This document shows, one piece after another, positions 29,231 to 48,139 of a stretch of DNA of 64,000 nucleotides. Position numbers and translations under genes: made by a program. The DNA lies in assembly GCA_964361095.1 (NCBI GenBank), contig CAYHZA010000006.1:1828-65827 (forward strand). Direction: 5' to 3'. The notes under the pieces are model-generated. The model was not told the DNA's origin. It saw nothing but the letters and a program-made list of their open reading frames with translations, and did not search any database. Source of the DNA: an uncultured Candidatus Saccharibacteria bacterium (GTDB lineage: Bacteria > Patescibacteriota > Minisyncoccia > UBA6257 > 2-01-FULL-56-20). Positions within the stretch are counted from its first letter, which is position 1, and every line of letters begins with the position of its first letter.

Positions 29231-29265
29231 GGTCTTCCTTTATGATGTCTCTTAATTTGTGGAAC

Positions 29266-30153: not shown

Positions 30154-31445
30154 TATTTTTGTACTATCCCAATTTGTTCCACTGTTTCGAACGTATGCTC
30201 GACTTTTCGATGCCACCGCCATAAAACGCGGACCGCATACCCGAGCGCAACAAGAAGCAAAAAACCAAATAAAACAACATAGGGCCAGGGGAAAAAATAT
30301 CCGCCCGCCAAGAGAATGCCCTTTCCGTCTAATATTTGAACAAGAGTATTCGCAATTTCCAGATCCTCTTTAGCTTCTTGAAAATTACCCGCCTCATCAT
30401 AGGCTCTTACGATAATCTGGTATCTTCCCAAGTCAAGCGACTCGGAATAGGGGGAGGCGGCTTCTATGAAAAACTCCTGACCAAAATTTGATGCGATTTT
30501 AGCGCTCAACACCTTAAGCTCATAGTGATCCATTCCAGAAATGGAATCTGTAGTTTCAAAGTTGATAACCGGATTTCTGCTTGCAGTTTTTTTACTTGGG
30601 GCAATTTGAATGCCAAATTTCGCCGGAGAAGTACGATCTATCTTTATGGCATAGTGGGTAATTCCTCCCCAGATGCCGCTTTGAAGCGACTTAATGTGGA
30701 AATAGTGAACGCCATCCGGAAGATCATCATACGTGGCAACTGCGTTGGGACCCTCTGAAACATTATCCGGATCATCGTTTATAGTGCTACTTAAAAGATA
30801 ACTATATCCCGAAACATCCCTAGGACCATCCCACCGCAATACAACATGATCGATATCATACCACTTTTCTTGATTCGGGTTGGTGGGAGAGGTTACCGAA
30901 GGACCCGCAGGTGGTGGAACAGTAAGGTAATACAGCCCGCTCGCCTTTTTCGTCAAAATATCGGTAGCGAGCCCGTCAGCGAGAAACACATGCGAAGTGT
31001 CCAGAATTTTTATCGGCGCCACTCCAACATTCATCACTCGAAAGGTAATTGTTGAAATAACCCCCGACTCGGTATTGATTCCGGGATTGTGGATGCCCCC
31101 TTGAAAGTTAAGCGTGCCATTCCTATTTGAATATGACGGCGGTGACGCCCAAATATCGATGAACGACTTTGCAATGGTAGTCGGCGAAACAACTTGTAGC
31201 TTATCCGGCGGGAAACTGAGATTTATCTCAAGGGCATTCACAAACTGATTGCCAGTGTCAAGATATAAGGAAACAGTGAACGTGCTCCCAACAGAAAAAC
31301 TCCCGCTTGAAGGGCCCAAAAAAACAGAGGCCGTTCCTCTTCCCTGCGCCAAGACCACATGTGGAAAAAAGAAAAAAAACCCCCATATCATAAGAATGAA
31401 CGCGGGAAACAACGAAAGAAATAAGACCTTATTTTTGATTATCAT
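30153..31445 (-). CDS. Surface protein: cohesin-like domain, FN3-like domain, C-terminal TM anchor
   Basis: Paralogue of the 27170..29230 N-terminal half (..LSFPPDKLQVVSPT.., ..YQIIVRAYDEAGN..). Confidence 0.6.
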   Translation of the reverse strand: MIIKNKVLFLSLFPAFILMIWGFFFFFPHVVLAQGRGTASVFLGPSSGSFSVGSTFTVSLYLDTGNQFVNALEINLSFPPDKLQVVSPTTIAKSFIDIWASPPSYSNRNGTLNFQGGIHNPGINTESGVISTITFRVMNVGVAPIKILDTSHVFLADGLATDILTKKASGLYYLTVPPPAGPSVTSPTNPNQEKWYDIDHVVLRWDGPRDVSGYSYLLSSTINDDPDNVSEGPNAVATYDDLPDGVHYFHIKSLQSGIWGGITHYAIKIDRTSPAKFGIQIAPSKKTASRNPVINFETTDSISGMDHYELKVLSAKIASNFGQEFFIEAASPYSESLDLGRYQIIVRAYDEAGNFQEAKEDLEIANTLVQILDGKGILLAGGYFFPWPYVVLFGFLLLVALGYAVRVLWRWHRKVEHTFETVEQIGIVQK

Positions 31446-31507
31446 ACGTGGAGGTGGTTCTTCTTATTATATACCTTTTTACCCAAAAGGATGTGGGGAA
31501 AAAACCG

Positions 31508-32428
31508 CTATGTAGTCCAATAGTAGAGAAGAATAGAAACATCAGCCATACTGACCGTACCATCGCCGTTAAAATCGGAACGCGCGACAGATTTATCTCG
31601 CCGCCCATAGTAGTAAAGTAAGATTGAAAAGTCTCTAATATCAATCCGCCGATCTCCGTTTAAATCTAATGTATCGAGAATATTCGAAACCGATGGCGGT
31701 CGCTCAGTAATTCTAGGGAGCGGTGGGCGGAGCGGCGGTCCTCCGCCGGTCGGTGGGACTTGAACAGTTCCTCCCTGTGGCGGCGGAGCGGGCGGTGTAA
31801 TTTGCGCTTGCGCCGAAAACGTCGGATAACGCGTGTAGGAATCAAGAACGGTTCCGGAAGAATATATCATTCGGAAAAACCAATCATTGGTCGTCGCGGC
31901 GGAGTTATTTTTTATCACCCAATCCCATTCTCCTCGTTGGCTGGCTGGAATCTCATTCGGCGTTTCGGCCGTCGGATTTGATTCCGAATACGATTCGCCA
32001 ACATTCGAATTCCCCAAAACCGGAGCGACGATTATCTGGCCATCGGAGACCCCCGGATTATCAGAAAAAATCCAGGGAGTGGACGTAGTAACATCCGCCC
32101 ACCCCGAAGAAGTAGTTGCTGAATATTGAAGCTTGAATATGGCTCCGGCGGGAAGCGCGAGAATTGTATCTTGGAGATTTATTCTCAAGCGAACCGTAGT
32201 TCCCGCGGCGGGTACAGTCGTTTCTGTATTCTCCGAATCAAGCGCGGTTCCGGGCGTAAGCGAGTCCGCGTTTGAGTACCACCGAAAATCACTTTGCGTA
32301 AGAGTGATAGTTGGGGCAGTAGTGACTACGCTCGTAGTTATCGGCGCGGCAAGGGCATTAAAAAAACCAAACGTGATGACAAAACTTATAAAAATTATAA
32401 AGATCTGATACCATTTCATTCCCAACAT
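31508..32428 (-). CDS. Secreted protein with Pro/Gly linker and C-terminal type-I-like dockerin (two Ca-binding repeats)
   Basis: DLNGDRRIDIRDFSILLYYY and DFNGDGTVSMADVSILLYYW repeats; linker PPAPPPQGGTVQVPPTGGG. Confidence 0.6.
   Translation of the reverse strand: MLGMKWYQIFIIFISFVITFGFFNALAAPITTSVVTTAPTITLTQSDFRWYSNADSLTPGTALDSENTETTVPAAGTTVRLRINLQDTILALPAGAIFKLQYSATTSSGWADVTTSTPWIFSDNPGVSDGQIIVAPVLGNSNVGESYSESNPTAETPNEIPASQRGEWDWVIKNNSAATTNDWFFRMIYSSGTVLDSYTRYPTFSAQAQITPPAPPPQGGTVQVPPTGGGPPLRPPLPRITERPPSVSNILDTLDLNGDRRIDIRDFSILLYYYGRRDKSVARSDFNGDGTVSMADVSILLYYWTT
31741..31796. repeat. ~56-bp DNA segment encoding the Pro/Gly linker; near-identical copy at 39015-39070
   Basis: ctccgccggtcggtgg(g/a)acttgaacagttcctccc.. 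with about 4 mismatches between the two copies. Confidence 0.6.
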
Positions 32429-32432
32429 TCAT

Positions 32433-33380
32433 TTATCTCTGCATTCTGCGCTTTCTTCTTTTGAGCACCATTCGAATGAAGATAATAAAAACAAATAAGG
32501 AGAAACCTATCGCGTAGTAAATCCAATTGTCTTGGAGTGATCGCAAGAAACGTTCCCGAGGATTCGAGAGTGTTCCCTCCTTCAAAACATTGAATATCGC
32601 CCGCTCGCTTTTTATAACCTTCTCTTCTTGATAAAAACTTACGCTTGCCCAATACTGCCCCAAGCCGAGATGAAAATTGATCGGAAACTCAACGACATAT
32701 TCTTTTGTCGCAAAGGGAGGTGTTTCCGGAAAGTCTTTGCTTTTGGGAACATAGGCAAGCCGTACCGCGCCAAAATTGTCAAAAAGTTCGAATGTGGCCG
32801 CGTCAAACGCTTCGGGTACGTTGCCGTCATTCACAAATTTTACGTATGCTCGCGGAGCCCATCCCTCCTCAATGTCGAGAAATTTTACCAGGGCGACATT
32901 AAAATTCCGATAGATATCGTTTCCCACCGTCACATTGATAGCTATCTGCACTCCGAGCGCGATGGCAACCTGACCACCCTCCGTTGTCGGACCGGCGGTG
33001 AAACGTAAATTTCCATGATACACCCCGAGAGCGGCATCTTTGGGTACATCTATTTCGATAGTTAAAGGAAATTGGCGCACTCCTTTTGGAATAATAACTT
33101 CTTTTCCTCCGTTCACCACGAACCAATTTCTAATCCGTTCGTTTACCTCGAGATTTGTTTGTATTTTTACATCATTATCGGGTTGATCTTGAACCAAATA
33201 AACCGTTTGCGAATAATGAGCGCCGGGAACCAAGTGGCTTTCGTTTAAAAACGGAGGAGAAATACCGAATGCCGCGTTTGAAACATGAGGATAAAAAATA
33301 AAAGCCCCAAGCAAAAAGCCGGAAGCGACAATAAAATAAAGAAGGCTAATATTTCGAAAGCCCCTATTCATCTCATTCAT
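32433..33380 (-). CDS. Secreted two-domain protein with C-terminal TM anchor (unknown function)
   Basis: Signal peptide, beta-rich domains, and a terminal hydrophobic helix followed by KRRKRR. Confidence 0.5.
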   Translation of the reverse strand: MNEMNRGFRNISLLYFIVASGFLLGAFIFYPHVSNAAFGISPPFLNESHLVPGAHYSQTVYLVQDQPDNDVKIQTNLEVNERIRNWFVVNGGKEVIIPKGVRQFPLTIEIDVPKDAALGVYHGNLRFTAGPTTEGGQVAIALGVQIAINVTVGNDIYRNFNVALVKFLDIEEGWAPRAYVKFVNDGNVPEAFDAATFELFDNFGAVRLAYVPKSKDFPETPPFATKEYVVEFPINFHLGLGQYWASVSFYQEEKVIKSERAIFNVLKEGTLSNPRERFLRSLQDNWIYYAIGFSLFVFIIFIRMVLKRRKRRMQR

Positions 33381-34526: not shown

Positions 34527-37500
34527 TTAAGGACTAAACACCGCGGTAAAAGTATTGACACCCGTGTATGTTCCCGTCGCTTTCCCTGTAGAAACTTCAA
34601 TCCCCCAGTATGTGGGACTAGAAACGGTATTGGTGCTCGTTGGCGATGTTAATAAAAATCCGGAAACGGCTGTGGCGGCGCTGCTCAATACTTGTTCGAA
34701 TCCACCGAACGTAAACGTGGAAGTCGCGTAATGTTGAGAGCTTGTGGCAATTGAATTCGATCCCAGGGTAAGCGCCGTACCACTTATCTTGAGCGTTGAT
34801 GAGGAGTTGCCCACGTTTTTAATGGAAAGAATTTGGTTCGTTCCGCCGGTGGTACTCGAAGGAGTGAGCGAACCGTAGTTGATACTGCTTGTCGTTACAT
34901 CAATCGCGAGAAGCGTACTCATCTCAACACCACTCGCGGTTGTAGAGGCAGTCGCATTACTTGAGGCATCAGTAACGGTTATCCGCGCGAGCCAATTCTC
35001 GCCGCTATAACTCGAACTCGCGTCCGTCGCATCGGCAAAGTAATAAATCTCCGCGGAACAACTTACCGTGCTTGTGGAATCCGTAAAACTACAGCTTGAA
35101 CTCGCGAGTTGATAACAATTTGAATTATTCGCCGGACAATTCGCGGTACCGCCCGCCCCCGAGCGATAAATCGTTGAGGTCGCATAACGAATATCTCCCG
35201 CGCCGTCGGGATCGCTTGTCGAAGCTCGGGCGATAATGGTCGTCGTTGCGGCAGGAGTAAGAATAATCGCCGTACTTGAGTTTATAGTAACTCCGGAAAC
35301 GGTAGGAGCCGAACCTCCCGCGGGAGCGGTGTATTTCCCTAAAATCACATCGCGGTATACCGGGAGCGACGTGGCCGAGCTCACGGTATAAGTAACACTA
35401 TGCGTGTGACTAGTATCTGCGGCATTTGCGGCAGTACCACTTTTGTTGACTGCATTACCGGAATTGCTTGCGATGTTGGCAAATGTTGTAGAGGCCGTAT
35501 GATTGTGCGTACTGCTCCCGCCCGTGGAACCAAAAGAACTCGCTCCTTTAAGAAATTTTCCGGCATAGGCGCTTCCCGATGTCGAAACGATGCTCCAATT
35601 CGACGGAAGCGATGCGTTATCAAAGAGTGCAATCAAGCCGTCGGGAATCGAAGAAGTTGCGCCAAGTTGGGCAAAAACCACGGTGATAAAAGGCGGCGTA
35701 TTGTTGTCGGCACCAATCGTGCTGGCGGCCGGTATTGTATGATCGTGGAGGTGCGGGTCGGTGTTCTTTCCATTACCACTGTCGTCCAATCTCCCCGCAG
35801 AGGCGCCGGAGGTAAGAGCTGCGGTAGTTGTGGGATTATGCGTGGATGCGCCACCAGTTAGGCCGTCGGCATCACCCCTAAGATATCGCTGGACATTCAG
35901 CGGGGAAATACCGTCACCGTTGAACGCGGAGTAAGAAGACCAGCCGGAAGGGAGAGAAGCTACGGCAACGTCGAAAATGCCGATTGTTCCGTTCGGAAGC
36001 GTAGTGGTCGCGGCGCTTATGAATTTCAGATTTCCAAATATAGGCCGGATGTCTTCTGAAGCAAGCGTTGGATTCCCCCATGTATGTGTGTGCGCTTCGG
36101 TAGCCGAAAACGTACCTATGGCGGCAGTGTTGATTCCGATGCCTGTACCTTGGGTATATGACGAAAACGTAAGCGTGTGTGTTACGTTATCCGCGCTTGA
36201 GGACGCGGAGCCGTAGGTCGAACTCGCCCGCGGAAACACGCCGAAAAATGGATCGGTTGCCACGCACGAAATACATGTCCAACCATTTGGAATTGTCGCG
36301 CCGTCCCAGAGTAATATAACCTCACCCGCCGCGTCGGCGGCTATCTGCCATTTTCTTGATTCTTGCCATGACCCGATTTCCAAGGCCCCTAGTTTATACA
36401 ATTCCGGGCTTACATTGGGCGCTTTGAAAAAATAATTCAGTTCGGCGCTCTCCCCTGCTTTAACATTGACGTTCCACGTAATTGTCTGATCGTGTATTCG
36501 ATTTTCTTTTTTTGAATTCAACTCGTTCGTGATATTAAACGAAAGCGGCACGATTTCACGTATCTCACCCGCGTAATCTTCGTTCGCGACGATATGCATC
36601 GTCATTTTGTAAATTGCCGGAGGGAAAATTCTTGTGGGACCGATACGCTCCACGCTAAAACGCGGCGCTTGCTCCACGCGGAAGATGTCCGTGATCGTGC
36701 GCCCACCGTTAGGCGTTCTCGCGGAAACAGAAACCTCGTACGTTCCCGATTCGTCGGCTTTTATGGAAGCGGAGTAATCCGGTTCATTCGTTACCGTTTC
36801 CGGGCCACATGACAGATTCCGTTTAATTTTTTTATTTGCGGTCGAAAGAAAAATAGTTCTGCCGGATGGCGCTTTGATTTGCGTCTCGATATTCGCGTTG
36901 CATATCGTGTGTCCCTGATCGTCCAATACTCCAAAACCAATGCGTGCCGTATCCCCTATCGCATAGATAGATTTATTAAAATTTACCGCGAGTACGCCCC
37001 ACGTAAAGTCGTTTTCCGTGAAGTAAATGACGCTATTTTTTAATATCCAAAGTCGAAGCGTGTAGCGCCCGGGATGGAACTCACGCTCCGGCTCGGGGAT
37101 ACTAATTCGGAGCTGGTTATTTACATTGAGTAGTATCGGTTCTATATTCGTTTCTTTCCCGTCAGGCCCGATAATGCGCGCGATGATGGGATTGCTTAAG
37201 GTCGGCAAATTACCCGGCGATAGATTTGACTGTGCTTCCGCCGAATTTCGAAAAAGATTTAAAAAAAAACCAAGCCATGCAAAATGGCTTTTCTGCGGGC
37301 GCGCGTATGACGCGGGGCCTTGCGATTGCGCGGGCGGCGAAAAAGAAGATTGTATCGTGGAACTGGGAATCGGCAAGTCGTCGAGGTTTAAATCAAACGA
37401 GGGAGTTTCGCTTGGTCCGAAATCTTTTTGATTGGGCCTCGTCGGGAGGGGTTTTTTACCGTCGGGAAGAGTGATAATACGGGGCGTGTTTTCGAGTGAT

Positions 37501-38714
37501 CCGTTCTCTTCGATTGGTTGGATAGTGGTTTCGCGCGAAAGTAGAGGCGGCAAATCGTAGTGAACTTCAACTAACATTCCGTCAAGATACGCCTTTGGAA
37601 TTTCGCCGATGGTTGTGGGAATACCCTCGACGCTGATTTGCAAACGCCGCAACTCATCCCATGAGCGCACCGGTAACGTCACCGTATAATTCCGCCAATT
37701 TGATTCGTTGACCTTCGCGAGTTCAACCCACGTCTCACCGTCAAAACTATAGTTAATTTTTAGGAAATTATCGTCAGGTGTAGTGTCATTTATGATGGGT
37801 TCAACTTCAGATTGCGGTGTCGGATTTTCTTTGGTTGAGGATACCATTCCTTCGTCCTTATCTTCTGGCGGCACTATTTTTGTTTCTTCGGAAATGGGAG
37901 ACGAGGATACTTCGGACTGGGGCACTAATTTCTCTTCGCGGTTTTCAAGTTCTTGCGCCAAAACTTGATTCAGAAGCGGGCGAAAAATCGAAAAACTTTT
38001 CCGAAGCGGAAGATGAAGATAACTTTGTGGCGCGCTATTTTCTGCGGGAGGAGCGGGTTCCACAATCTGACTTGTTGTTTGAGCTTCCTCGGTGGGCGGA
38101 GGACTCGGCAACGGCTCCGGAGGAGCAACCTCTTTTTTTAGAGGACCTTCACTTGGAGTTTGGTCAGTACTCGTTGCGATTGGCGGCAGCGGATCATTAC
38201 TTTCCGTCGTAGTTGCCGGCACGGGCAGATCTATGACAGGTTCAGGTGTTGTTGATACGGGAATCGACACGGGAGATGGAGATCCTCCGCCCTGCGACTG
38301 AGATTCTCCAACGTGCCAGACGAGCGTTAGGCCAACATTTTTAATTTCTCCCTCGCCTTCATAATCTTGTGGTACAAAATTGCCGCAAAATATGTTTTTT
38401 GCTTCTTTCGTGTAAATACTTGAATTCGCTTGCGTGAACAGCTGGCCATCGGACCCGAATGTCTCCGGCTGACTTTGCGCGTTTTGCGGATTTTGCCAGT
38501 CGCCAAGACAGGTTTCTGGATAAAAATCGGAAACGTCGGCTCTTATAAAAATACTGTTTAAAACAAAGGGTGAAAATAAAAGTGCCAAAACAATAACCGT
38601 AATCGTAAGAAGCCGAGAGGTATCACTGCGGATTGAGCTTCGAAGGATTTTGAAGCGATGAAAAGAAACACCTAAAAATTTCCCCAAAAAATTCCGTTTG
38701 CGCGAGGAATGCAT
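34527..38714 (-). CDS. Giant (1395 aa) membrane-anchored surface protein: Pro-rich stalk, multiple beta domains, H-x-H motif domain, shared C-terminal domain
   Basis: N-terminal signal-anchor. The central ~450 aa is paralogous to the 594-aa protein (WDGATIPNGWTCISC.., spaced HTHTW / HLHDH / SHTHS motifs). Confidence 0.6.
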   Translation of the reverse strand: MHSSRKRNFLGKFLGVSFHRFKILRSSIRSDTSRLLTITVIVLALLFSPFVLNSIFIRADVSDFYPETCLGDWQNPQNAQSQPETFGSDGQLFTQANSSIYTKEAKNIFCGNFVPQDYEGEGEIKNVGLTLVWHVGESQSQGGGSPSPVSIPVSTTPEPVIDLPVPATTTESNDPLPPIATSTDQTPSEGPLKKEVAPPEPLPSPPPTEEAQTTSQIVEPAPPAENSAPQSYLHLPLRKSFSIFRPLLNQVLAQELENREEKLVPQSEVSSSPISEETKIVPPEDKDEGMVSSTKENPTPQSEVEPIINDTTPDDNFLKINYSFDGETWVELAKVNESNWRNYTVTLPVRSWDELRRLQISVEGIPTTIGEIPKAYLDGMLVEVHYDLPPLLSRETTIQPIEENGSLENTPRIITLPDGKKPLPTRPNQKDFGPSETPSFDLNLDDLPIPSSTIQSSFSPPAQSQGPASYARPQKSHFAWLGFFLNLFRNSAEAQSNLSPGNLPTLSNPIIARIIGPDGKETNIEPILLNVNNQLRISIPEPEREFHPGRYTLRLWILKNSVIYFTENDFTWGVLAVNFNKSIYAIGDTARIGFGVLDDQGHTICNANIETQIKAPSGRTIFLSTANKKIKRNLSCGPETVTNEPDYSASIKADESGTYEVSVSARTPNGGRTITDIFRVEQAPRFSVERIGPTRIFPPAIYKMTMHIVANEDYAGEIREIVPLSFNITNELNSKKENRIHDQTITWNVNVKAGESAELNYFFKAPNVSPELYKLGALEIGSWQESRKWQIAADAAGEVILLWDGATIPNGWTCISCVATDPFFGVFPRASSTYGSASSSADNVTHTLTFSSYTQGTGIGINTAAIGTFSATEAHTHTWGNPTLASEDIRPIFGNLKFISAATTTLPNGTIGIFDVAVASLPSGWSSYSAFNGDGISPLNVQRYLRGDADGLTGGASTHNPTTTAALTSGASAGRLDDSGNGKNTDPHLHDHTIPAASTIGADNNTPPFITVVFAQLGATSSIPDGLIALFDNASLPSNWSIVSTSGSAYAGKFLKGASSFGSTGGSSTHNHTASTTFANIASNSGNAVNKSGTAANAADTSHTHSVTYTVSSATSLPVYRDVILGKYTAPAGGSAPTVSGVTINSSTAIILTPAATTTIIARASTSDPDGAGDIRYATSTIYRSGAGGTANCPANNSNCYQLASSSCSFTDSTSTVSCSAEIYYFADATDASSSYSGENWLARITVTDASSNATASTTASGVEMSTLLAIDVTTSSINYGSLTPSSTTGGTNQILSIKNVGNSSSTLKISGTALTLGSNSIATSSQHYATSTFTFGGFEQVLSSAATAVSGFLLTSPTSTNTVSSPTYWGIEVSTGKATGTYTGVNTFTAVFSP

Positions 38715-38797
38715 CTTTTATATTTTAGCATTTTTTGAAGCAAAAAAAACGCCGATTGCTGTTCATAAACCGCAGAAAAGGCGGGGGGCGCCTATCG

Positions 38798-39331
38798 TTA
38801 TGCTATCCAGTAGAACATAAGGACTGACACATCGGGGAAATCAACCGTTTTATTTCCGTTCAAATCATACCTCGAAATTTTAGGCCCAAATTCTTCGTAG
38901 TAAAAAAGCATAATAGAGAGATCCACGATATTACACCGCCCATCGTCATTAAAATCGCATTTCTTTATTATCTCCGGAGTTATTACCGGTTTCTGGGCTT
39001 TCGGAGGAATTCCACCTCCGCCGGTCGGTGGAACTTGAACAGTTCCTCCCGATGGCGGCGGAGCCGGCGGAGTTAGAGGAGTAGCCGGTGTCACGGCCGG
39101 AAAATTTAAAAAGCCACCACGCAAGACGAAGGACGTGCTCGTGGAAATTCCGGTTCCCGGCTGGCCGATGCTTGTACGCAAATTAAACCCGCTTGAAGTT
39201 GCGCCGCTTCCGCCCACGTCAATAACTCCCGCTTCTATTTTAAAATTTGTCGAAGTCGCGGAATCGGCAAGGACTAAAAACGGGAGGCCAAGCAGAAAAC
39301 CGATTATAAAGACGGTAATTCCTTTTTCCAC
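38798..39331 (-). CDS. Small secreted protein with Pro/Gly linker and C-terminal dockerin
   Basis: DFNDDGRCNIVDLSIMLFYY and DLNGNKTVDFPDVSVLMFYW repeats; linker PPAPPPSGGTVQVPPTGGGG. Confidence 0.6.
   Translation of the reverse strand: MEKGITVFIIGFLLGLPFLVLADSATSTNFKIEAGVIDVGGSGATSSGFNLRTSIGQPGTGISTSTSFVLRGGFLNFPAVTPATPLTPPAPPPSGGTVQVPPTGGGGIPPKAQKPVITPEIIKKCDFNDDGRCNIVDLSIMLFYYEEFGPKISRYDLNGNKTVDFPDVSVLMFYWIA
39015..39070. repeat. Second copy of the ~56-bp linker-encoding DNA repeat (see 31741-31796)
   Basis: Sequence comparison by eye. Confidence 0.6.
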
Positions 39332-39337
39332 CGTTTC

Positions 39338-39820
39338 TTATTCGCCATTTTGGCTTAAGAAATTTTTTATCGATTGCACTACTTGTGAATTATCCTTGAG
39401 ATTCTCCCAGAATATAATGGCGCTTCTTGGTACATACATCATATCCTCTGGCCCGTGCAGTTCGCTTCCCAGTTTTACCAAACTTAAATCGGGAACTGCT
39501 CCCCCGCCCTGCTGGAGCGCTTGGCTCGCCCGCAAGTAAAAAATATTCTCAAGGGCGACATATTCCTTGGTTACTTCTTTAAGGTTTCCGAAATATACCT
39601 GATCGTTATTTAAAAAGACCGCCTGCCATTTGTTTTCGTCAATCTTTGGAAAAGTTTTTACGAGAAAGAAAAGGTCTCCAACTTGAAGAATAAGAATAAG
39701 GAGTAGCAAAATAAATACAGCTCCAAAACCCTTTTTGGATCGAGATCGTTCGCCCTCCGGCGCCCCTGCGTTCATAAGATCTTCTGGAGAATTTTTTCTA
39801 AGGTTATTAATGCTATTCAT
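39338..39820 (-). CDS. Membrane-anchored hypothetical protein
   Basis: Charged N-terminus, one TM helix, and a ~110-aa extracytoplasmic domain. Confidence 0.45.
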   Translation of the reverse strand: MNSINNLRKNSPEDLMNAGAPEGERSRSKKGFGAVFILLLLILILQVGDLFFLVKTFPKIDENKWQAVFLNNDQVYFGNLKEVTKEYVALENIFYLRASQALQQGGGAVPDLSLVKLGSELHGPEDMMYVPRSAIIFWENLKDNSQVVQSIKNFLSQNGE

Positions 39821-39858
39821 ACAATTAATATTATCACATCGCCCCGCGCCTGTCAGAC

Positions 39859-42800
39859 CTATGGAGCAGGCGAAAATTCGCCCGGAGATTGTGGAATGTC
39901 CCCTGGCTCGGTAGGTAATTCCTCGGGAACCACTCTCAGGCTTGGATGAAGTATTGGAGATTCCACAGGTGGGGTTGAAGAAGGAGTGGAAGTGGAAGTG
40001 GAAGTGGAAGTCGATATCGGATCTTCGCCTGCAGGATTTTCGCCCTGTGTTTCTCCGTCATTATTGTGAGCATTTTCTGAATTCGATCCGCATACGCCCG
40101 GAAGCGTCTTCAAAATCCCGTCTTCAACCTGAACGCAATATGGATTCTTTGTTTGTACATCGAAGATCGTAAAACCAACAGGCGTCTCGGGAGAACCGAT
40201 TGTCAGTTTCTCTACCGTAAGTTCGCGCATTGAATAAGCCATTAAAGGATCAAGGTTGTAGTTATTAATAATTGAGGTGTTGATCCCTCCCTGTCCGTAA
40301 CCCACATATCCCTGGAGATTACTTCCACCGAGGACGTTTGTTTTCCATTGGGGACTCATAAATGCGAGCACTCTACCTGTGTCGGCGATCGATGTTCCCC
40401 TAAAAGCTTCCATTGCGATCGCGACAACCTTTCCGGAATTCGTTGCTTTCATCGCATAGCCCAGCGTGTCCGACGAAGTCAAATAATCACCCGGCTCAAT
40501 CGGCCCGTTCTGCCCAGTCACTTTTACCGGCAAACGCCCCGCGAGCGCCATGATGATAGAGCCGCGCCCGTCATCACCGCCGCCCGCGACAAGGCCTGCC
40601 GTTTCCGTTACCACTCCCACAAGTTTTTGATCGTACGCCACTCTCGATTTTTCAAATTTCCCCGGTTTCGCAACCGATATGGAAAGGAGGTCTCCCGCCC
40701 CGTAATCTTCGGCGGGACCAACGACTTGGACGAATTCGCCAATGTCCGCCTGCCCTCCATAGATCGAACCGCGCGCGATAATTGAGTTCGCGGTGGTTGA
40801 GCCGTCGGCAGAGGCAAAAAATGCGACAGTGTCCGTTGTGCTTGCGGCCGTCGGCACTGTGCAGTTATTTTTTGCGCAAACTGTAAGCGTGCTTGTTGCG
40901 CTAAATTGCGTCGAAGTTGCAATAGCGATAGTACCCGAGGCGATAACAACCACAGAACTCGACGCCGTAGAACTCCCCACAATAAGCGACGTTCCGAAAT
41001 ATCCCGTGCGAAAGATTCTACCCACCGTTCCAAGGTCAAAAGCATTCGTAAACGAAGGAACGGTATCCAAACTTGTCGAGGAAAGCCGAAGCGTTGAGGT
41101 GTTGTTGATTCCGAAAATAAGCGTAGAGGACGCTACATTCGTCCCCGAACCTCCTTGCGCGATAAAGTTTCCTCCCTTCGTAAACCCAAGAGAATCAGTC
41201 GCTCCCATCGCGCCGCCAAAGGTCAATTTCGGGCCGACATTCGCGGTATTCGCCGCGTTCGAGATAAACATCGTTCCCGCCCTGCCGAGAATCAAGTCCG
41301 CGGTGTTTGTCGCGTTGTAACTCGGAGTGATTTGCGCGCCGATTGCGTTCATAGATTTGACCGGTGATGTTTGGAGGTTTCCACTAAGCTGTAACCCCCG
41401 TAGTGTTCCCCAAGCCGCGCTTGAGGCGTGGATTGACGTAAGCCCCGTCCCTTTGAAAAGGGAAAACGAAGAAAACGAACCGAGAAGCGGCGAGGAGTTT
41501 GGATTCCCCGAAATAGATACTTCGTGTCCGGTAAAAGTACCCGCTACGCCTGTTCCGCCTCCATCGGTGGACTCAAAACCATCAACGAATATAAGCCCAT
41601 AGTTTCCCCCGGTGATGACAGCGCTTGCTCCTATATCCGTGTCAAGCGTCGCGTAAAGTCTAATCCCATTACTCCACCCGCCCTCTGTATCTGAATAATC
41701 TTCACCAATGGCTAAAATCGTTCCGTTCGGGTTGGGTTGGTTCCCAGAAAGAGATGAACCTTTGCCGATAAGCAACCTGCCATTCACTACCGCTCCCTGT
41801 GTAGAGCCGGAAGGGTATGAGGGATAAAGTTGTAAAATCGTAGTCCCCGAAGCGTCTTTGAGGTTCAATCTTCCGAATACCTGCGAAGAACTGCTCCTTG
41901 ACCACTGGAGAGAGTCATCAGCTCCGTTAGTCGTGAAGGTCAGCGTATCTCCGAAAATAGTCGAGGTGGAGGTGAGATACGCAAGATTTGCCGCGAGCGT
42001 ACCCGTAAGCGTAGTCGTCGCTCCCGTAATCGTGGAAAGAGTGGAAGCTCCAGAAATATTCAGCGACGCTCCTTGAAGAAAGCCGCTTGCGGTAAAATTG
42101 GTCGAGGAAACATTTGCGAGCGTGGATTGGCCGGAAATATTGAGGGACGTGCCCTGTAGATACCCCGAGGCAGTAAGATTTGTTCCGGAAGCATTTGTGA
42201 ATCCCATGGTCGGAAATATTCCATAGCCCGATGCGGTGATATTTGTTGAGGAAACCGCCGCAAGAGTTGACTGTCCGGAGACATTAAGCGCCGCTCCCTG
42301 GAGGTAACCAGAAACAGTAAGGTTGGTTCCTGATGCGTTCGTGAAATTCAAGGTTGGGAAAGTGCCGTAGCCGGTAACGGAAATGTTGGTAGACGAAACA
42401 TTGGTGAGCGCGGCGTTCGTGGAGTTCAAAGTCGGAAATGTCCCGTAGCCAAAGACGGTAATATTGGTCGAAGAGACGTTCGTCGAGGAAACAGTAGTAA
42501 GGGCAAGAGACGTTCCCGTAGCGTTCGTGAACGTAATCCCGCTTAACGTCGTGATCCCTCCGACATTTAATGTGTTTGAAAACACAACGGCACCCGCGAA
42601 TGTGGAACTCCCATTCGGAAGATTAATGCCGCCCGACGGATCGAGCTGTAGCACATTATTCGCCGAAGTCCCCGCATGCGCTCCGTCAACTGTGTCGGCG
42701 TTAATCGCGAATCCGGAAGCAACAATTGACTGGCGGGGGGTAAGCGTCTCGAACGCCGCCGTGCTCGTACTATAGACTTCAATTTGAAGGTAATAAATCG

Positions 42801-43155
42801 AGGAGGTATTGAAATCCAAATTCAGCGCCGAAAACCCCTGGTTCGTATCGCCAATCCGAGCGTCGAACACCCCGCTTGTTATCTTGTGCGTGGTCGAAGC
42901 GGGCGCGCTCGCGGGCCAAAGCCGGGTTCCCAATCCCACAGTTGAAGTGCTCCAAATGGAAAACTTGAAATCAAAGTTTGTCCCTGCTGAACTTCCTTGG
43001 AGATTCCCGCTCGCATCCTCAAGCCTGCCCTGATAATTGATGATCTGCGGCACTGCTGCATATGCGCGAACAAAGAACGCCAACGCAGCAAATGCAAATG
43101 CAAAAGAAAGTAACTGAAAAAATGGCCTGTCCTTGAAACGTGCCATAAAGTTCAT
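39859..43155 (-). CDS. Giant (1098 aa) secreted Thr/Ser/Asn-rich repeat protein (fibre/adhesin-like)
   Basis: Signal peptide; ~15 degenerate tandem repeats of the form TNxSxTNxTxSGY..; C-terminal STSTSTSTPSSTPP Pro-rich tail. Confidence 0.6.
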   Translation of the reverse strand: MNFMARFKDRPFFQLLSFAFAFAALAFFVRAYAAVPQIINYQGRLEDASGNLQGSSAGTNFDFKFSIWSTSTVGLGTRLWPASAPASTTHKITSGVFDARIGDTNQGFSALNLDFNTSSIYYLQIEVYSTSTAAFETLTPRQSIVASGFAINADTVDGAHAGTSANNVLQLDPSGGINLPNGSSTFAGAVVFSNTLNVGGITTLSGITFTNATGTSLALTTVSSTNVSSTNITVFGYGTFPTLNSTNAALTNVSSTNISVTGYGTFPTLNFTNASGTNLTVSGYLQGAALNVSGQSTLAAVSSTNITASGYGIFPTMGFTNASGTNLTASGYLQGTSLNISGQSTLANVSSTNFTASGFLQGASLNISGASTLSTITGATTTLTGTLAANLAYLTSTSTIFGDTLTFTTNGADDSLQWSRSSSSQVFGRLNLKDASGTTILQLYPSYPSGSTQGAVVNGRLLIGKGSSLSGNQPNPNGTILAIGEDYSDTEGGWSNGIRLYATLDTDIGASAVITGGNYGLIFVDGFESTDGGGTGVAGTFTGHEVSISGNPNSSPLLGSFSSFSLFKGTGLTSIHASSAAWGTLRGLQLSGNLQTSPVKSMNAIGAQITPSYNATNTADLILGRAGTMFISNAANTANVGPKLTFGGAMGATDSLGFTKGGNFIAQGGSGTNVASSTLIFGINNTSTLRLSSTSLDTVPSFTNAFDLGTVGRIFRTGYFGTSLIVGSSTASSSVVVIASGTIAIATSTQFSATSTLTVCAKNNCTVPTAASTTDTVAFFASADGSTTANSIIARGSIYGGQADIGEFVQVVGPAEDYGAGDLLSISVAKPGKFEKSRVAYDQKLVGVVTETAGLVAGGGDDGRGSIIMALAGRLPVKVTGQNGPIEPGDYLTSSDTLGYAMKATNSGKVVAIAMEAFRGTSIADTGRVLAFMSPQWKTNVLGGSNLQGYVGYGQGGINTSIINNYNLDPLMAYSMRELTVEKLTIGSPETPVGFTIFDVQTKNPYCVQVEDGILKTLPGVCGSNSENAHNNDGETQGENPAGEDPISTSTSTSTSTPSSTPPVESPILHPSLRVVPEELPTEPGDIPQSPGEFSPAP
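41955..42545. repeat. Degenerate tandem coding repeats (period ~39 nt/13 aa, with a higher-order ~117 nt unit) inside the 1098-aa gene
   Basis: Repeated ..SSTNITASGYG.FPT..FTNASGTNLT.SGYLQG..LN.SGQSTLA.V.. units in the translation. Confidence 0.55.
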
Positions 43156-43304
43156 CTATTTTATTATATATTAACACGCGAAAAACTGTGGCGGAAGGGT
43201 GTGCATAAATCAAGCCGCATAGCAGTAATTAGCAGTTAGAACTTAGCCAGTAGAAAACTCGGAAATTTATTTGATCTACGCCCCCTCAACTAAGGTGAGA
43301 TACT

Positions 43305-43366
43305 TTCTTAATTTTCATTAGGCCTTTTGCCTGCCTGCCGGTAGGCAGGGCTATGAAAATTAAGAA
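43305..43366. other. Two-tier hairpin (14-bp perfect outer stem TTCTTAATTTTCAT/ATGAAAATTAAGAA enclosing a GC-rich inner stem) between the 594-aa and 1098-aa genes
   Basis: Read directly from the sequence; there is no adjacent U-tract. Confidence 0.45.
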
Positions 43367-43481
43367 ATACATCGAACCATTATTATTGGCTACTATCTAC
43401 TTTTATTTGACTTTTTATTTTTTGGCATTTTTTAGAGATTAAAAAACCGGCAGATGTGAATAAAATCAATTTTCTTGCTCT

Positions 43482-45266
43482 TTAGCCCCCCGCGATCTGT
43501 TTTAAGAGCGATGAAAGGAAAGTATTTATGATTTCGAGAAGTTTAATATAGAATTGCTGAATTTTATCTTCAAATTGTCGGTATTCGGTAGGAGAAAGAA
43601 TTTTTGCTGATCCCGGAGTTGAATTTATGGGTAAGGGAATTTCATTCGAGATTTCTGGTGGTCGTGGTGATACCGGCGAAAGAGAGCCTCCATACGAAGC
43701 CGGTACGCCGATGGGAATTGTCGCAGGTGTCGGAGCTGGCGTTGGAGATGAAATGGTGTTTACTTCAACGCCGGATACCGTAGTTGAACCGTATATATTC
43801 CCGGCACTGTCGGTTACTGTTATAGTCGCAAGCCAATTTTCCGAAGAAAAATTTGAACTCGCATCGGTCGCTTGTGTCGTATCGTCAAAACTCGCGGTAC
43901 AGCGCACCGTACTCGTGGAATCGGTGAACGCGCAGCTTGAGCTCGCGAGTTGATAACAATTTAAATTACTCGCCGCGCATGTTGCGCCGACAGCCGATCG
44001 ATATATAGTAGAGGTGGCATAACGTATATCCTCCACTCCATCGGGGTCGCTTGACGATGCACTTACGGTAACGGTGGTGGTCGCGTTGGAAGTTAAATTG
44101 ATATCTTGCCCACTATTCAAAAGAACACCGGAAACTGTTGGATCTTGATTCGTATATTGTCCTAAAATCACGTCGCGATATACGGGAAAAGAATTTTCCG
44201 CGCTGCTTGAAATGGCATAGGTCGCGCTATGGGTATGCGACCCAATGGCGGCGTTTACGTCGAATGTATCTTGTATCACATTCGTGGTAGCGCTTGGCAA
44301 GCCGCTTGTGATCGCAGTGCTCGTGTTGTGGCTGTGACTGCTTGATCCGGCAATTGTCCCGAACGCATTCGATCCTTTTAAAAGCCTTCCGGCGTACGCG
44401 CTCCCAGAAGTTGAAACTATGCTCCAGCCCCCGGGCAACGACGAGTTATCGAAGAGCGCGATCATCCCATTGGCGGGCGTTGATGTTGTTCCCAGCTGAG
44501 CGAACACAACCTCGATCGAAGGCGGCGCGTTGCTGCTTTCCGTAAGGCTCCCGGAAATCAGTATGTGTGTATGCGAAGTCGTGCCAATGTTCGCATTCGT
44601 AAGGGTAGTGTTGGTGCCCTCGCTTCCGACTGCCGATCCCGAAGTGACCGCGCCGCGAGAATGGGTATGCGTTGAAGCGCCTCCTGTCGAGGTCGTTTGT
44701 GCGCCTCGCAAGAAGTTTCCGTTCAGTGCGGAATAGTACGACCAATTTGTCGGCAACGAGCTCGTGTTTGATACGTTAAAGATCCCTATGACTCCGTTGG
44801 GCAATGTGGTTGTCGCCGCCTGGATGAATTTGAGATTTTTAAAAGGCGGCCGCACATCGCCGGTTCCTATCGAGGGGCTGCTCCAAGTGTGTGTATGGAA
44901 TCCACTCGCTACGTTCACCTGAGAATCGGTTGAGATCTGAGTGGTGCCACCGAAATCAGCGCTTGAGAAGGTAAGCGTATGGGTTACCGTATCGGTTCCC
45001 GAAGAAGCATTCGCGTATGAAGAACTTGCGCGAGGAAATACACCGAAAAACGCATCTGTGGCTGAGCAGGAAATACACGTCCAGCCAGTGGGAATAACAT
45101 CCCCTTCCCACATGAGAATAAGGTCCCCTGCGGAACCATGCGCCTCTTGGGGAGGCGACTGGATAGGAAGCTTATTGTCTTTCTGATAGAAAAAGAACGC
45201 AGCAGACGCAAAAACGAAAATAAAAATCAGGAAAAGAGCGGCATGGAAAAATCTTCTTGATTTCAT
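43482..45266 (-). CDS. Secreted 594-aa protein paralogous to the central and C-terminal regions of the 1395-aa protein (H-x-H motif family)
   Basis: Signal-anchor, LILMWEGDVIPTGWTCISC.., and five spaced motifs (HTHTW, STHTHS, SHTHIL, SHSHNT, SHTHSA). Confidence 0.6.
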   Translation of the reverse strand: MKSRRFFHAALFLIFIFVFASAAFFFYQKDNKLPIQSPPQEAHGSAGDLILMWEGDVIPTGWTCISCSATDAFFGVFPRASSSYANASSGTDTVTHTLTFSSADFGGTTQISTDSQVNVASGFHTHTWSSPSIGTGDVRPPFKNLKFIQAATTTLPNGVIGIFNVSNTSSLPTNWSYYSALNGNFLRGAQTTSTGGASTHTHSRGAVTSGSAVGSEGTNTTLTNANIGTTSHTHILISGSLTESSNAPPSIEVVFAQLGTTSTPANGMIALFDNSSLPGGWSIVSTSGSAYAGRLLKGSNAFGTIAGSSSHSHNTSTAITSGLPSATTNVIQDTFDVNAAIGSHTHSATYAISSSAENSFPVYRDVILGQYTNQDPTVSGVLLNSGQDINLTSNATTTVTVSASSSDPDGVEDIRYATSTIYRSAVGATCAASNLNCYQLASSSCAFTDSTSTVRCTASFDDTTQATDASSNFSSENWLATITVTDSAGNIYGSTTVSGVEVNTISSPTPAPTPATIPIGVPASYGGSLSPVSPRPPEISNEIPLPINSTPGSAKILSPTEYRQFEDKIQQFYIKLLEIINTFLSSLLKQIAGG

Positions 45267-45312
45267 AAGGTAAGAAAAAAATCCTACTCTAAGTATAGCA
45301 AAAACAATAAAC

Positions 45313-45921
45313 TTACGAGGCGTGCTTCGCGAGGAGGTCGTATTCTTTTATGATGTTGTTTGCAAAACCCCAGTCAAGGTTTTTGAAAAAGGCGTCGAGA
45401 TACGGCTTTCGGTCAATGCCATAGTCCATCGCGTAGGCGTGTTCATAGACATCGAGAACAATAACGGGAATCGCTCCCCAGACGGCGCCTACATTATGTG
45501 AATCCGAGCCGTAGTTATGGAGACGATTATCGCGGAAATCAAAGGCAAGAATCGCCCATCCGCGGGCGCAGATAGCGGTTGTAACCATATCCAATTTCCA
45601 CTCGTCCAAAGAGTCAAAATCTTTCTCTATCATTTTTACCAACTCCCCTTTCGGTTCTCCGTCGCCGGACAGATGCCCAAAATACACTTCGTGCAGTTTC
45701 ATTCCGTTTACGGCGAATGTCTCCTGCCGCTTCAGCTCGCCAATCATGCTATAAACCCCATTCGCCTCTGATTTATCGGCGCCGTCGATTTTTTCTTGAA
45801 TCTCGTTCGTTTTTTTAACGTATCCTTCGTACAGCTTAAAATGCGCCTGTATCATTTTGAGCGTCAATCCGGGCCGATCTTTGTCGATTTTTAATTTATC
45901 TGCCTCAAATGGTTTATGCAT
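45313..45921 (-). CDS. sodA: Fe/Mn superoxide dismutase
   Basis: ..DVYEHAYAMDYG.. C-terminal signature and an N-terminal helical domain. An alternative start at 45960 would overlap the palindrome. Confidence 0.8.
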   Translation of the reverse strand: MHKPFEADKLKIDKDRPGLTLKMIQAHFKLYEGYVKKTNEIQEKIDGADKSEANGVYSMIGELKRQETFAVNGMKLHEVYFGHLSGDGEPKGELVKMIEKDFDSLDEWKLDMVTTAICARGWAILAFDFRDNRLHNYGSDSHNVGAVWGAIPVIVLDVYEHAYAMDYGIDRKPYLDAFFKNLDWGFANNIIKEYDLLAKHAS

Positions 45922-45948
45922 GCGAAATTTTAATAAATTAAAACTTTG

Positions 45949-45980
45949 TGCCGAACGCATAGAACACTATGTGTTCGGCA
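45949..45980. promoter_or_regulatory. 32-nt imperfect palindrome TGCCGAACGCATAGAACACTATGTGTTCGGCA upstream of sod; half-site related to the 23450-23481 palindrome
   Basis: 13/14 arm complementarity. Shared CCGAnCnCATA half-site with the 23450-23481 palindrome. Confidence 0.45.
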
Positions 45981-47165: not shown

Positions 47166-47438
47166 ATGCTTGAGATTTTTGCCACCAACGAATTTGAGGA
47201 ACGATATCGGAAACTTCCGGTGATTGTTCGGAAGAAGGCAGAAAAACAGGAAATTCTTTTTCGCGAAAATCCTTTTTATCCCTCCCTCCATACCGAAAAA
47301 CTGGAGCCAAAAGGAAAACAAGTGTGGAGTTTTCGTGTTGATAAAAAGTATCGGATATTCTTTCGATTTTTAGAGGAAAATAAAGTTTTATTTCTCACCG
47401 TTGGCCCGCACGATTGGATTTATAAGTTGAGATTTTAA
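47166..47438 (+). CDS. RelE/ParE-family type II toxin
   Basis: ..WSFRVDKKYRIFFRF.E.NKVLFLTVGPHD.IY.. RelE/ParE signature. Confidence 0.65.
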   Translation: MLEIFATNEFEERYRKLPVIVRKKAEKQEILFRENPFYPSLHTEKLEPKGKQVWSFRVDKKYRIFFRFLEENKVLFLTVGPHDWIYKLRF

Positions 47439-47745
47439 GCGTGTCCGCGCAATGGGCGTAAAAAGAATTACGTAATATATTGCGTAACTCAAATTTTAGT
47501 TGGCAAAAATAAAAACAAGGAGTGCGAAGAAAAAATCGGAGATAAAAAAAGCGCCGTGTCCGATTGGCAAAAAGCCGAAAATGGCGTAAAATATTGAAAA
47601 TTGCCGGCTTGCCCGCCGAAACTTTAGTGAAGGCGGGGTCGCCCGCCTGCCCTCCTGCTGAGGGTAAAACGGCCGGCAGGTCTAACGGCCCCGAAACATT
47701 CTTCGAATGTAACGGGGTAAATAGTCCATCGGCCAGCACAAAGTT

Positions 47746-47763
47746 CCGCGCAAAGCTGGGGGA
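47746..47763. repeat. Left arm (CCGCGCAAAGCTGGGGGA) of a perfect 18-bp inverted repeat; right arm at 48222-48239
   Basis: Exact reverse-complement match. A 13-bp inner inverted repeat (47776-47788 with 48119-48131) and a 10-bp direct repeat CTTGCCCCGC (47772-47781 and 48152-48161) are nested inside. Confidence 0.7.
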
Positions 47764-47788
47764 TCGTCTAACTTGCCCCGCCAAATTT

Positions 47789-48139
47789 ATGCCATGTTAT
47801 ATTTATATTCTATGTAATAAGGTTGGAAAACACTATGTAGGTATAACCAAGCTAGACCCAGAAAAGCGCCTATTACGACATAATCGGGGCGAGGTATATT
47901 CGACAAAATTTGGTATACCGTGGCAGGTCGTGTATTTTGAAAAACATAACAATTACCGCGAAGCCCGAGAAAAAGAAAAACAAATAAAAAGCTGGCATGG
48001 CGGCAATGCATTCAAAAAGTTTCTGCACATTACTGCGGGGTCGTCTAGCGGTAGGACATCGGCCTTTGGAGCCGAGTACCCTGGTTCGAATCCAGGCCCC
48101 GCAGCAATGCGCAGAAACAAATTTGGCGGGGTGAAGTAG
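47789..48139 (+). CDS. GIY-YIG nuclease-superfamily protein (YhbQ/UPF0213-like); the reading frame has no stop before running through the tRNA-Gln gene
   Basis: YIYILCNKVGKHYVGITKLDPEKRLLRHNRGE....YFEKHNNYREAREKEKQIKSWHG. The true C-terminus is uncertain. Confidence 0.55.
   Translation: MPCYIYILCNKVGKHYVGITKLDPEKRLLRHNRGEVYSTKFGIPWQVVYFEKHNNYREAREKEKQIKSWHGGNAFKKFLHITAGSSSGRTSAFGAEYPGSNPGPAAMRRNKFGGVK
48035..48103 (+). tRNA. tRNA-Gln (anticodon TTG)
   Basis: Acceptor GCGGGGT/..CCCCGC, anticodon arm TCGGC-CTTTGGA-GCCGA (U33, anticodon UUG), T-arm CCTGG-TTCGAAT-CCAGG. CCA is not encoded. Confidence 0.6.

Follow-up and report, generated by a model that had tools for sequence, protein, structure and literature searches.

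Triplicated HxH modules related to phage tail-fibre tips in predicted surface proteins of Patescibacteria

Little is known of the way in which ultrasmall Patescibacteria locate their host cells and stay attached to them, and a locus on contig CAYHZA010000006.1 of a Patescibacteria metagenome-assembled genome (MAG) from Hainich groundwater raises the question of whether proteins related to the tips of phage tail fibres could serve this purpose. The 64,000-nucleotide stretch of that contig analysed here (the window) encodes on its minus strand proteins of 1395 amino acids (aa) (A1395, 34527..38714), 594 aa (B594, 43482..45266) and 324 aa (C324, 33460..34434), and the original prediction had seen in them a family of cell-encoded, membrane-anchored, possibly trimeric adhesins, two of them with five regularly spaced His-x-His (HxH) motifs reminiscent of those that coordinate metal along a trimeric beta-helix in the tail fibres of phage T4. 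In our best reading the architecture is a different one: with a probability of about 0.6, the HxH unit is a single-chain pseudo-trimer of phage-fibre-tip modules, carried on the Patescibacteria cell and likely acting as a receptor-binding adhesin, in a large and unannotated family of Patescibacteria surface proteins.

The open reading frames (ORFs) of the three proteins are as predicted, and the paralogy of A1395 and B594 is confirmed by BLASTP, which aligns residues 790-1268 of the former with residues 40-505 of the latter at 55% identity (E 5e-136), a shared stretch of about 480 aa whose limits in A1395 had been placed at about 760-1200. B594 carries HxH at residues 124, 200, 232, 311 and 344, which account for 10 of its 13 histidines, and A1395 carries it at residues 875, 988/990 (HLHDH), 1070 and 1103, with degenerate sites at about 846 (VTHT) and at 959 (STHNP). 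Five HxH were reached in none of 20,000 shuffles of A1395, B594 or either domain (shuffled mean 0.26-0.33), and the domain in which the motifs sit is rich in Ser, Thr, Gly and Ala, much as had been described. Their regular spacing did not survive scrutiny. Counted from residue 94 of B594, successive motifs lie 30, 76, 32, 79 and 33 residues apart, an alternation of about 30-33 and 76-79 residues that arises because the HxH region is a unit of about 325 aa made of three tandem homologous modules of about 108 aa, each with two HxH positions. Profile comparison of module against module gives hhalign probabilities of 99.4-99.8% (E 3e-21 to 9e-30), and in place of five sites along a homotrimeric beta-helix there are two times three positions that result from internal triplication. 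The turn repeat of a beta-helix is ruled out as the source of the spacing, which is set by a repeat of whole domains. The family has six HxH positions; the first of them (B594 94/96) reads V-T-H in both window proteins, and therefore five had been counted.

Every module is built in the same order: a collar-like start (G-x-I-x-x-F/W ... P-x-G-W ... F-L-R-G ... G-G), the first HxH ('a'), a variable hairpin of about 28 residues, the second HxH ('b') and an end strand of the form PP(Y/F)xxVxF. The three-module unit occupies residues 795-1128 of A1395 (35331..36332) and residues 46-372 of B594 (44151..45131), where module 1 (residues 46-152, 44811..45131) has a GWTCISC (CxxC) motif, a degenerate 'a' site (V94/H96) and a 'b' HTH at 124-126, module 2 (residues 153-262, 44481..44810) has an 'a' HTH at 200-202 and a 'b' HTH at 232-234, and module 3 (residues 263-372, 44151..44480) has an 'a' HSH at 311-313 and a 'b' HTH at 344-346 and terminates in PVYRDVILGQYT. 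Five of the six histidines of the 'a' layer are present in B594; A1395 has one complete 'a' HxH only, and its 'b' layer is complete. The suggestion that the tips of these proteins differ fits the data: nowhere does the unit vary more than in the a-b loops that separate the paired HxH of a module, where entropy is about 3.0 bits (1.7-2.3 bits in the rest of the unit) and A1395 and B594 are 21-37% identical, against 50-69% elsewhere, with loop length kept at about 28 residues. Variable loops of fixed length are what a recognition surface built on an unchanging scaffold should show. The CxxC motif, GWTC(I/V)SC, is confined to module 1 (residues 811-817 in A1395) and breaks the equivalence among the three modules; across 158 copies its first Cys is 84% conserved and the Ser preceding its second Cys 96%, and the pair could form a disulfide or supply an additional metal ligand.

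The unit belongs to a large family. A word-indexed homologue search returned 11 relatives only, and a profile search of 1.84 billion cluster representatives returned 2,096 at E<=1e-3, 1,085 at E<=1e-10 and 404 at E<=1e-30. The family of more than 2,000 clusters is without a Pfam model, and no curated library covers the HxH unit: none of 49 diverse members passed a Pfam threshold. From the best 150 proteins of the profile search and the 11 of the first homologue search we assembled a set of 161 proteins with 158 full-length units, in which exactly 12 His columns, equal to six HxH, are conserved, each at 74-98%, and the histidine motifs are therefore kept in homologues; the 'b' motifs are the best preserved (92-96% intact). 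Of the 177 tandem module runs in the 161 proteins, 159 have three modules, five have six and 13 have one or two, so that module number is three or six in 164 runs; eight of the 13 short runs lie in sequence fragments and the other five in two long proteins, P0108 and P0148. Two copies of the unit are often found in one protein, and the proteins reach 6,807 aa. The further domains that relatives carry (fn3, Kelch and MG2-like) are of the kind of which extracellular proteins are composed. B594 itself is identical to a database protein (P0024) recorded at NCBI as 'MAG: hypothetical protein AAB652_01830 [Patescibacteria group bacterium]', whose gene is on a 71.7-kb contig from the 0.1-µm fraction of Hainich groundwater. 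In a collection of species-representative genomes, where a query with a single protein found nothing, a five-sequence alignment found ten relatives, all in MAGs: five labelled Saccharibacteria, two Paceibacterota and one each 'Patescibacteria group', 'bacterium' and 'archaeon', the one labelled 'bacterium' having the same operon as the window, so that nine of the ten carry a Patescibacteria label or are consistent with one. The relative in the MAG labelled 'archaeon' (locus L013, contig JAZDMG010000007.1 of 236,897 bases) matches the unit at 30% identity and sits within an ORF that extends past the 17-kb locus, hence in a very large protein; its HerA-like neighbours do not settle the label.

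Structure prediction gives the three modules a common body. From 12 aligned sequences AlphaFold already predicted one confident body of the three module cores (pTM 0.64), with all HxH hairpins below a pLDDT of 50; with 49 diverse sequences the model of a single chain was all beta, with a mean pLDDT of 90.9 and a pTM of 0.85. So high a pTM for a single chain means that the predicted modules are held rigidly together and are not strung out as independent units, and since the chain is predicted to be compact, a homotrimer would not be needed to unite three HxH. Compared by Foldseek with viral models (BFVD), the unit matches the phage proteins Pas29 (E 1.3e-13) and Pas28 (E 1.4e-12), with a probability of 1.00 and a query TM of 0.57-0.58; the next and weaker match is a 'phage tail collar domain containing protein'.

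The likeness to the HxH sites of phage tail fibres, which the original prediction had drawn from the motifs, reflects remote homology, seen in bridged profile searches, in tail-collar matches and in the structural matches to Pas28 and Pas29. A hidden Markov model (HMM) of the module built from Patescibacteria sequences only finds a tail-collar fibre protein of 148 aa in Synechococcus phage S-SKS1, which it matches over its whole length (E 1.5e-13, search space 3), and two partial stretches of gp50 of Methylophilales phage Venkman that jointly make up most of the module; Venkman gp50 has HxH at both the 'a' and the 'b' position and a 'NLPPYYALAYIMKL' end. A bridged profile, composed of the family module profile and these two phage tail-collar sequences, matches the Protein Data Bank (PDB) entries 9QGO (Pvc13 'tail fiber protein', E 8e-8), 9NXK (Pa223 'tail fibers protein', E 5e-4) and 6OV6 (JUB59 'C24 protein', E 2e-3), each an entry deposited with three identical chains, and the HxH columns of the unit align with the HxH of Venkman gp50 and of the Pa223 fibre. 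Pvc13 is the fibre of a Photorhabdus contractile injection system, made of three intertwined chains, with a C-terminus that resembles the host-binding domains of phage short tail fibres; C24, from a temperate phage that infects Bizionia argentinensis JUB59, forms that phage's receptor-binding tip and is similar to the tip of the T4 long fibre. HxH motifs of T4 gp37 bind seven Fe ions, and the collar domain of T4 gp12 is similar in sequence to part of gp37; for SU10 gp16 it is written that His194/196 and His230/232 'may bind Fe2+ ... as occurs in T4 and JUB59'. In all of these trimeric tips (T4 gp37, 2XGF; T4 gp12; 6OV6; SU10 gp16; 9NXK; 9QGO) a collar-like start is followed by HxH, a hairpin, HxH and a 'PPYY..' end, and the number and spacing of the motifs agree with the window module, two HxH about 30-36 residues apart, as in SU10 gp16, where the distance is about 35. 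Their His pairs are described as Fe2+-binding on the threefold axis and as stabilising the fibre, and the module lies at the receptor-binding end. In T4 gp12 the metal is Zn, bound by His445 and His447 of the three chains. Judged by sequence, then, the window module is a remote homologue of a C-terminal tip or collar module that is present once per chain in the trimeric tail fibres of phages, tailocins and the Photorhabdus virulence cassette (PVC). It differs from them in that they contribute one module per chain and three chains per site, whereas in the window three modules are fused in one chain, and in that they are parts of a virion or injection particle, whereas the window proteins have a cellular operon and an export signal.

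The collar-like start can be traced to PF07484, the Phage Tail Collar Domain, which is also found in bacterial MdpB-like proteins: the signature 'G.I..W/F....P.GW' stands in the first ~25 residues of all three modules, and the signature residues P59, W62, P156, I160, F163, W175 and W281 are 97-100% conserved and align with S-SKS1, Venkman gp50 and VR7 gp12. The Pfam model, unlike the module, is 57 residues long and excludes the HxH-bearing remainder. None of the 49 diverse members reached its gathering threshold (24 bits), one having a sub-threshold match at E 0.019, and the window proteins had no match to it; P0167, a relative described below, scores 26.8 bits (cut-off 24) at the start of its second module, and S-SKS1 and Venkman gp50 are sub-threshold.

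Phages, too, have proteins with three such modules per chain. In Actinoplanes phage phiAsp2, Pas29, whose gene comes after pas28 and the putative major tail protein gene pas27, is annotated in GenBank as 'possible receptor recognizing protein; contains HXHY motifs; similar to phage TuIa tail fiber'. Pas28 and Pas29, the best structural match of the window unit, have three modules each, with four HxH per module and twelve per protein, and the family HMM matches both. The third module of Pas28 has matches to phrog_1800 'tail collar fiber protein' and, by tblastn, to T4-like gp12 and tail-collar proteins. Both proteins belong to phrog_5795 'tail protein', which three of the 49 diverse family members match (best E 3.5e-7) and which the window proteins do not match at E<=0.1. 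A second homologue search (30 proteins) yielded a subfamily of about 410-430 aa (P0010, P0167 and others) that consists of three modules only, from residue 1, with 10-13 HxH. P0010 (locus L017, 2161..3417), which matches phrog_5795 at E 1.6e-11, adjoins a phage portal gene and an SU10-like capsid gene, and P0167 (locus L019, 3289..4572) comes from a contig that looks phage-like and also encodes RecT and a C39-type peptidase. All four proteins share with the window unit three tandem modules per chain and HxH at equivalent places. They differ from it in having three or four HxH per module (10-13 per unit), against two in the window family, in the seven-residue spacing of the first three HxH of each module, in lying beside virion genes or on phage contigs, and in sequence, with identity of about 19% only. 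Because stand-alone versions exist in phages, the single-chain triple unit is not peculiar to cellular proteins, and these share it, and have probably exchanged it, with phages. The P0010/P0167 type looks like a stand-alone single-chain tail 'knob'; we know of no description of such a knob and, to our knowledge, none of these phage three-module proteins has been studied structurally or biochemically. In another protein of the phage type, P0164, residues 171-260 have a sub-threshold match to the C-terminal domain of T4 baseplate Gp10 (PF21939, E 0.003), which hints at a wider kinship among the trimeric tips of T4 baseplates and fibres.

The window genes themselves are cell-encoded, as had been proposed. 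On the minus strand, from 45266 down to 27170, the operon runs B594, a 1098-aa protein, a 160-aa protein, a 177-aa dockerin-like protein, A1395, C324, a 315-aa protein, a 306-aa dockerin protein and three cohesin proteins, and it lies among housekeeping genes of the MAG: the window also encodes def (peptide deformylase), fmt (formyltransferase), an S41 protease, an Fe/Mn superoxide dismutase (SOD), a P-type ATPase and tRNA-Gln. Gene order is conserved from the 1098-aa gene to the cohesins in locus L004 and from A1395 onward in L005, L007 and L011, each from a different MAG; the A1395 orthologues at these four loci are 38-50% identical in amino-acid sequence, and each is followed by one or two copies of C324. 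In L004 (190..4270, compared with window 39859..45960) the SOD gene is followed directly by the 1098-aa orthologue, with no B594 between them, and B594 therefore seems to be an additional paralogue, with HxH unit and Ig subdomain, that is specific to its lineage. No portal, capsid, terminase, sheath or baseplate gene lies near the HxH genes, the B594 unit found no match by tblastn in 50,697 phage records, and no relative could be confirmed when IMG/VR viral contigs were scanned with the family alignment. Membrane anchoring, too, fits what was found, with one N-terminal hydrophobic segment in each of A1395, B594 and C324.

On the favoured reading, fusion of three modules would let one polypeptide fold as a pseudo-threefold body in which the three 'a' HxH meet on the pseudo-axis and the three 'b' HxH do likewise, each set forming a six-histidine octahedral Fe2+ or Zn2+ site. 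Up to two such sites per unit would then staple the modules together, as in T4 gp37, T4 gp12, JUB59 C24 and SU10 gp16, and the three variable a-b hairpins would be left as an exposed ligand-binding face. The proteins would be exported through an N-terminal signal or anchor and most likely act on the Patescibacteria cell as cell-surface receptor-binding (adhesin) modules, with A1395 and B594 differing in specificity. Patescibacteria characterised so far are described as living attached to other microbes, and given that lifestyle we infer that binding to a partner cell or to a surface glycan is the most natural function.

Several results weigh against this reading and limit how far it can be pressed. 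The confident model found no match among single PDB chains by Foldseek (best E 0.14), a null that is expected if one chain mimics three and that we read as the limit of a chain-by-chain comparison and not as a sign of a new fold. For A1395 and B594, searches of Pfam, PHROGs, NCBIfam and PDB sequences returned nothing usable, leaving them with no PHROG or Pfam family, and with the Patescibacteria-only profile 9QGO and 9NXK rank at the top of 177,635 PDB sequences at marginal scores (E 0.02 and 0.035), so that the link to phages rests on intermediate sequences and predicted structure. It is from homology and from the confidence scores of the model that we deduce both a pseudo-threefold axis and a clustering of the His side chains. 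When one 'a' motif is lost the other two are no more likely to be lost with it, and the 'b' motifs behave alike (phi about 0); within a module there is no correlation either. Both window proteins have an incomplete 'a' layer, and the 'a' site may therefore be dispensable, or absent here. Pfam finds no cohesin or dockerin domain in A1395, B594 or C324 that would tie them physically to the scaffold proteins of their operon.

What the unit does on the cell could differ even if its fold and ancestry are as proposed. It might be a rigid, metal-stapled block or spacer of the envelope, such as part of an S-layer-like coat or a surface fibre put together with the cohesin and dockerin proteins, or a decoy to which phages are lost; the conserved operon, with its membrane-anchored cohesins, its dockerins and a 1098-aa repeat protein, would suit such a role, as would the embedding of one or two units in multidomain relatives that reach 6,807 aa and also contain fn3, Kelch and MG2-like domains, and no ligand is known. 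The module nevertheless stands at the receptor-binding end of the fibre in every characterised relative, and variation within the unit is highest in the a-b loops, whose length is nonetheless kept, as in a recognition surface, and on balance we consider an envelope block unlikely, if worth keeping in view. Somewhat less credible still is the homotrimeric fibre of the original prediction, in which each HxH would meet its copies from two other chains in five or six metal sites. It has in its favour that all solved relatives are homotrimers, but the unit itself already consists of three homologous modules, which come in threes or sixes in nearly all runs, the single chain is predicted as a compact body, phage proteins made of three modules alone exist, and a homotrimer would bring nine modules together, for which the relatives offer no precedent.

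The twelve conserved histidines per unit, and a heavy-metal P-type ATPase encoded in the window at 19690..22068, might instead be taken as signs that the His pairs serve metal uptake, storage or catalysis and not structural stapling. The unit, however, resembles no enzyme or metal-transport family, the homologous HxH of phage fibres are described as structural, and the ATPase gene lies 12 kb off on the other strand and outside the operon, all of which makes this account very improbable. We give less weight again, and indeed hardly any, to the notion that structural genes of a phage, prophage or tailocin happen to lie in the window and that A1395 and B594 are not host surface proteins. The homology of the module to tail-fibre tips and the presence of three-module proteins on phage contigs are what speak for it; against it stand the neighbouring SOD, def, fmt, S41 peptidase, cohesin and dockerin genes, the N-terminal export or anchor segments of A1395 and B594, and the negative IMG/VR and tblastn searches, and a prophage or tailocin origin was rejected on the absence of phage genes nearby and on the cellular gene order conserved in four Patescibacteria MAGs.

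If the single-chain pseudo-trimer is accepted, a wider proposal can be built on it, to which we commit ourselves only tentatively and with clearly less assurance: that episymbionts of the candidate phyla radiation (CPR) took over a single-chain, pseudo-trimeric, metal-stapled phage fibre tip for the recognition of host cells. Hypervariable a-b hairpins would then set host specificity, as phage receptor-binding proteins set host range, and paralogues such as B594 and A1395 could widen or switch that range, the units being mounted on a cohesin-dockerin envelope scaffold. If true, this would reveal adhesins on a large scale: a family, so far unannotated, that comprises more than 2,000 clusters at 50% identity and whose longest members have 6,807 aa. 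A large family of surface proteins homologous to phage receptor-binding tips is a concrete and testable candidate for host recognition. It would also exemplify how an obligately homotrimeric, intertwined, metal-stapled tip can be turned into a single chain by triplication, which bears on the folding of fibres, since those of phages often depend on chaperones and on a trimer in correct registration. Receptor-binding modules that are monomeric could be engineered with it as a guide. Phage tails have already been proposed as an extracellular pool of protein-bound Fe or Zn, and if metal binding holds, abundant groundwater proteins of this kind would be a further one.

Outside the HxH unit the three window proteins have a modular layout. 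A1395 begins with a hydrophobic segment, the sole one in a Kyte-Doolittle scan (residues 35-53, 38556..38612), followed by a Pro-rich low-complexity region and a conserved beta-rich region of about 460 aa immediately upstream of the HxH unit (residues 330-790, 36345..37727), which has a counterpart in 63 of 177 family proteins and a sub-threshold Pfam match only, to MG2 (macroglobulin Ig-like). After the unit come a four-Cys, probably Ig-like subdomain common to B594 and C324 by BLASTP (residues 1129-1268, 34911..35330) and a C-terminal beta subdomain (residues 1269-1395, 34530..34910) common to C324 and not to B594; the full architecture is also seen in relatives such as P0032 and P0072. C324 consists of an N-terminal hydrophobic segment, the Ig-like subdomain (residues 49-198) and the beta subdomain (residues 199-324), has no His and no HxH unit, and returned nothing from PDB and phage searches. 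A C-terminal region shared by all three proteins had been put at about 180 aa, and the sharing holds in part: A1395 residues 1129-1395 align with C324 residues 49-324 over about 270 aa (48% identity, E 2e-62), and B594 residues 366-507 align with C324 residues 50-198 (38% identity, E 6e-16), having only the first subdomain of about 135 aa in common. In B594 the only strongly hydrophobic segment in the same kind of scan (residues 9-27, 45186..45242) would be either a signal peptide, an ASA motif being present, or an N-terminal membrane anchor. Its four-Cys subdomain (residues 373-507, 43746..44150), which it shares by BLASTP with A1395 and C324, is probably Ig-like and has no Pfam match, and its true C-terminus (residues 508-594), a Pro-rich tail that closes in an amphipathic helix, is unrelated to the ends of A1395 and C324.

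The other operon proteins resemble parts of cohesin-dockerin scaffolds of the cellulosome type. Every operon protein has an N-terminal hydrophobic segment, and the cohesin proteins and the 315-aa protein have a C-terminal transmembrane (TM) segment. The downstream genes (27170..33380, minus strand) encode the 315-aa protein, with TM segments at both ends, the 306-aa dockerin protein (Pfam Dockerin_1, 34.5 bits, cut-off 22.9) and cohesin proteins of 430, 318 and 686 aa, two of which score 31.5 and 31.8 bits against Pfam Cohesin (cut-off 24.1) and the 318-aa one 23.2, just under it. Upstream of A1395, the 177-aa protein (38798..39331, minus strand), syntenic in L004, has a C-terminal dockerin-like segment that matches Dockerin_1 below threshold (E 7e-4). 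With three TM-anchored cohesin proteins and two dockerin-type proteins, syntenic in relatives, the operon is like such scaffolds; it is unlike them in that it holds no glycoside hydrolases. These features suggest a non-cellulolytic cohesin-dockerin envelope scaffold in a Patescibacterium, and gene order suggests a physical link between it and the HxH proteins.

Between B594 and the 160-aa gene lies the gene of the 1098-aa Ser/Thr-rich repeat protein (39859..43155, minus strand), which has an N-terminal hydrophobic segment, is 56% identical to its syntenic counterpart in L004 and found no match in Pfam, PHROGs, PDB or phage records. It is composed of tandem repeats of about 45 aa ('...VSSTNITxSGYGxFPTxxFTNASGTNLTxSGYLQGxxLNxSGQSTLAx...'), an 'INADTVDGAHAG' segment and a conserved C-terminal region. 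Two of the cohesin ORFs, 29266..30222 and 30153..31445, overlap by 70 bases, and the real start of the 318-aa cohesin protein is probably a downstream ATG. Elsewhere in the window, a HigB-like toxin ORF (47166..47438) is followed by a GIY-YIG ORF (47564..48139) whose 3' end overlaps tRNA-Gln (48034..48105) on the same strand; probably the end of this ORF is over-called, or the tRNA lies within the tail of the gene.

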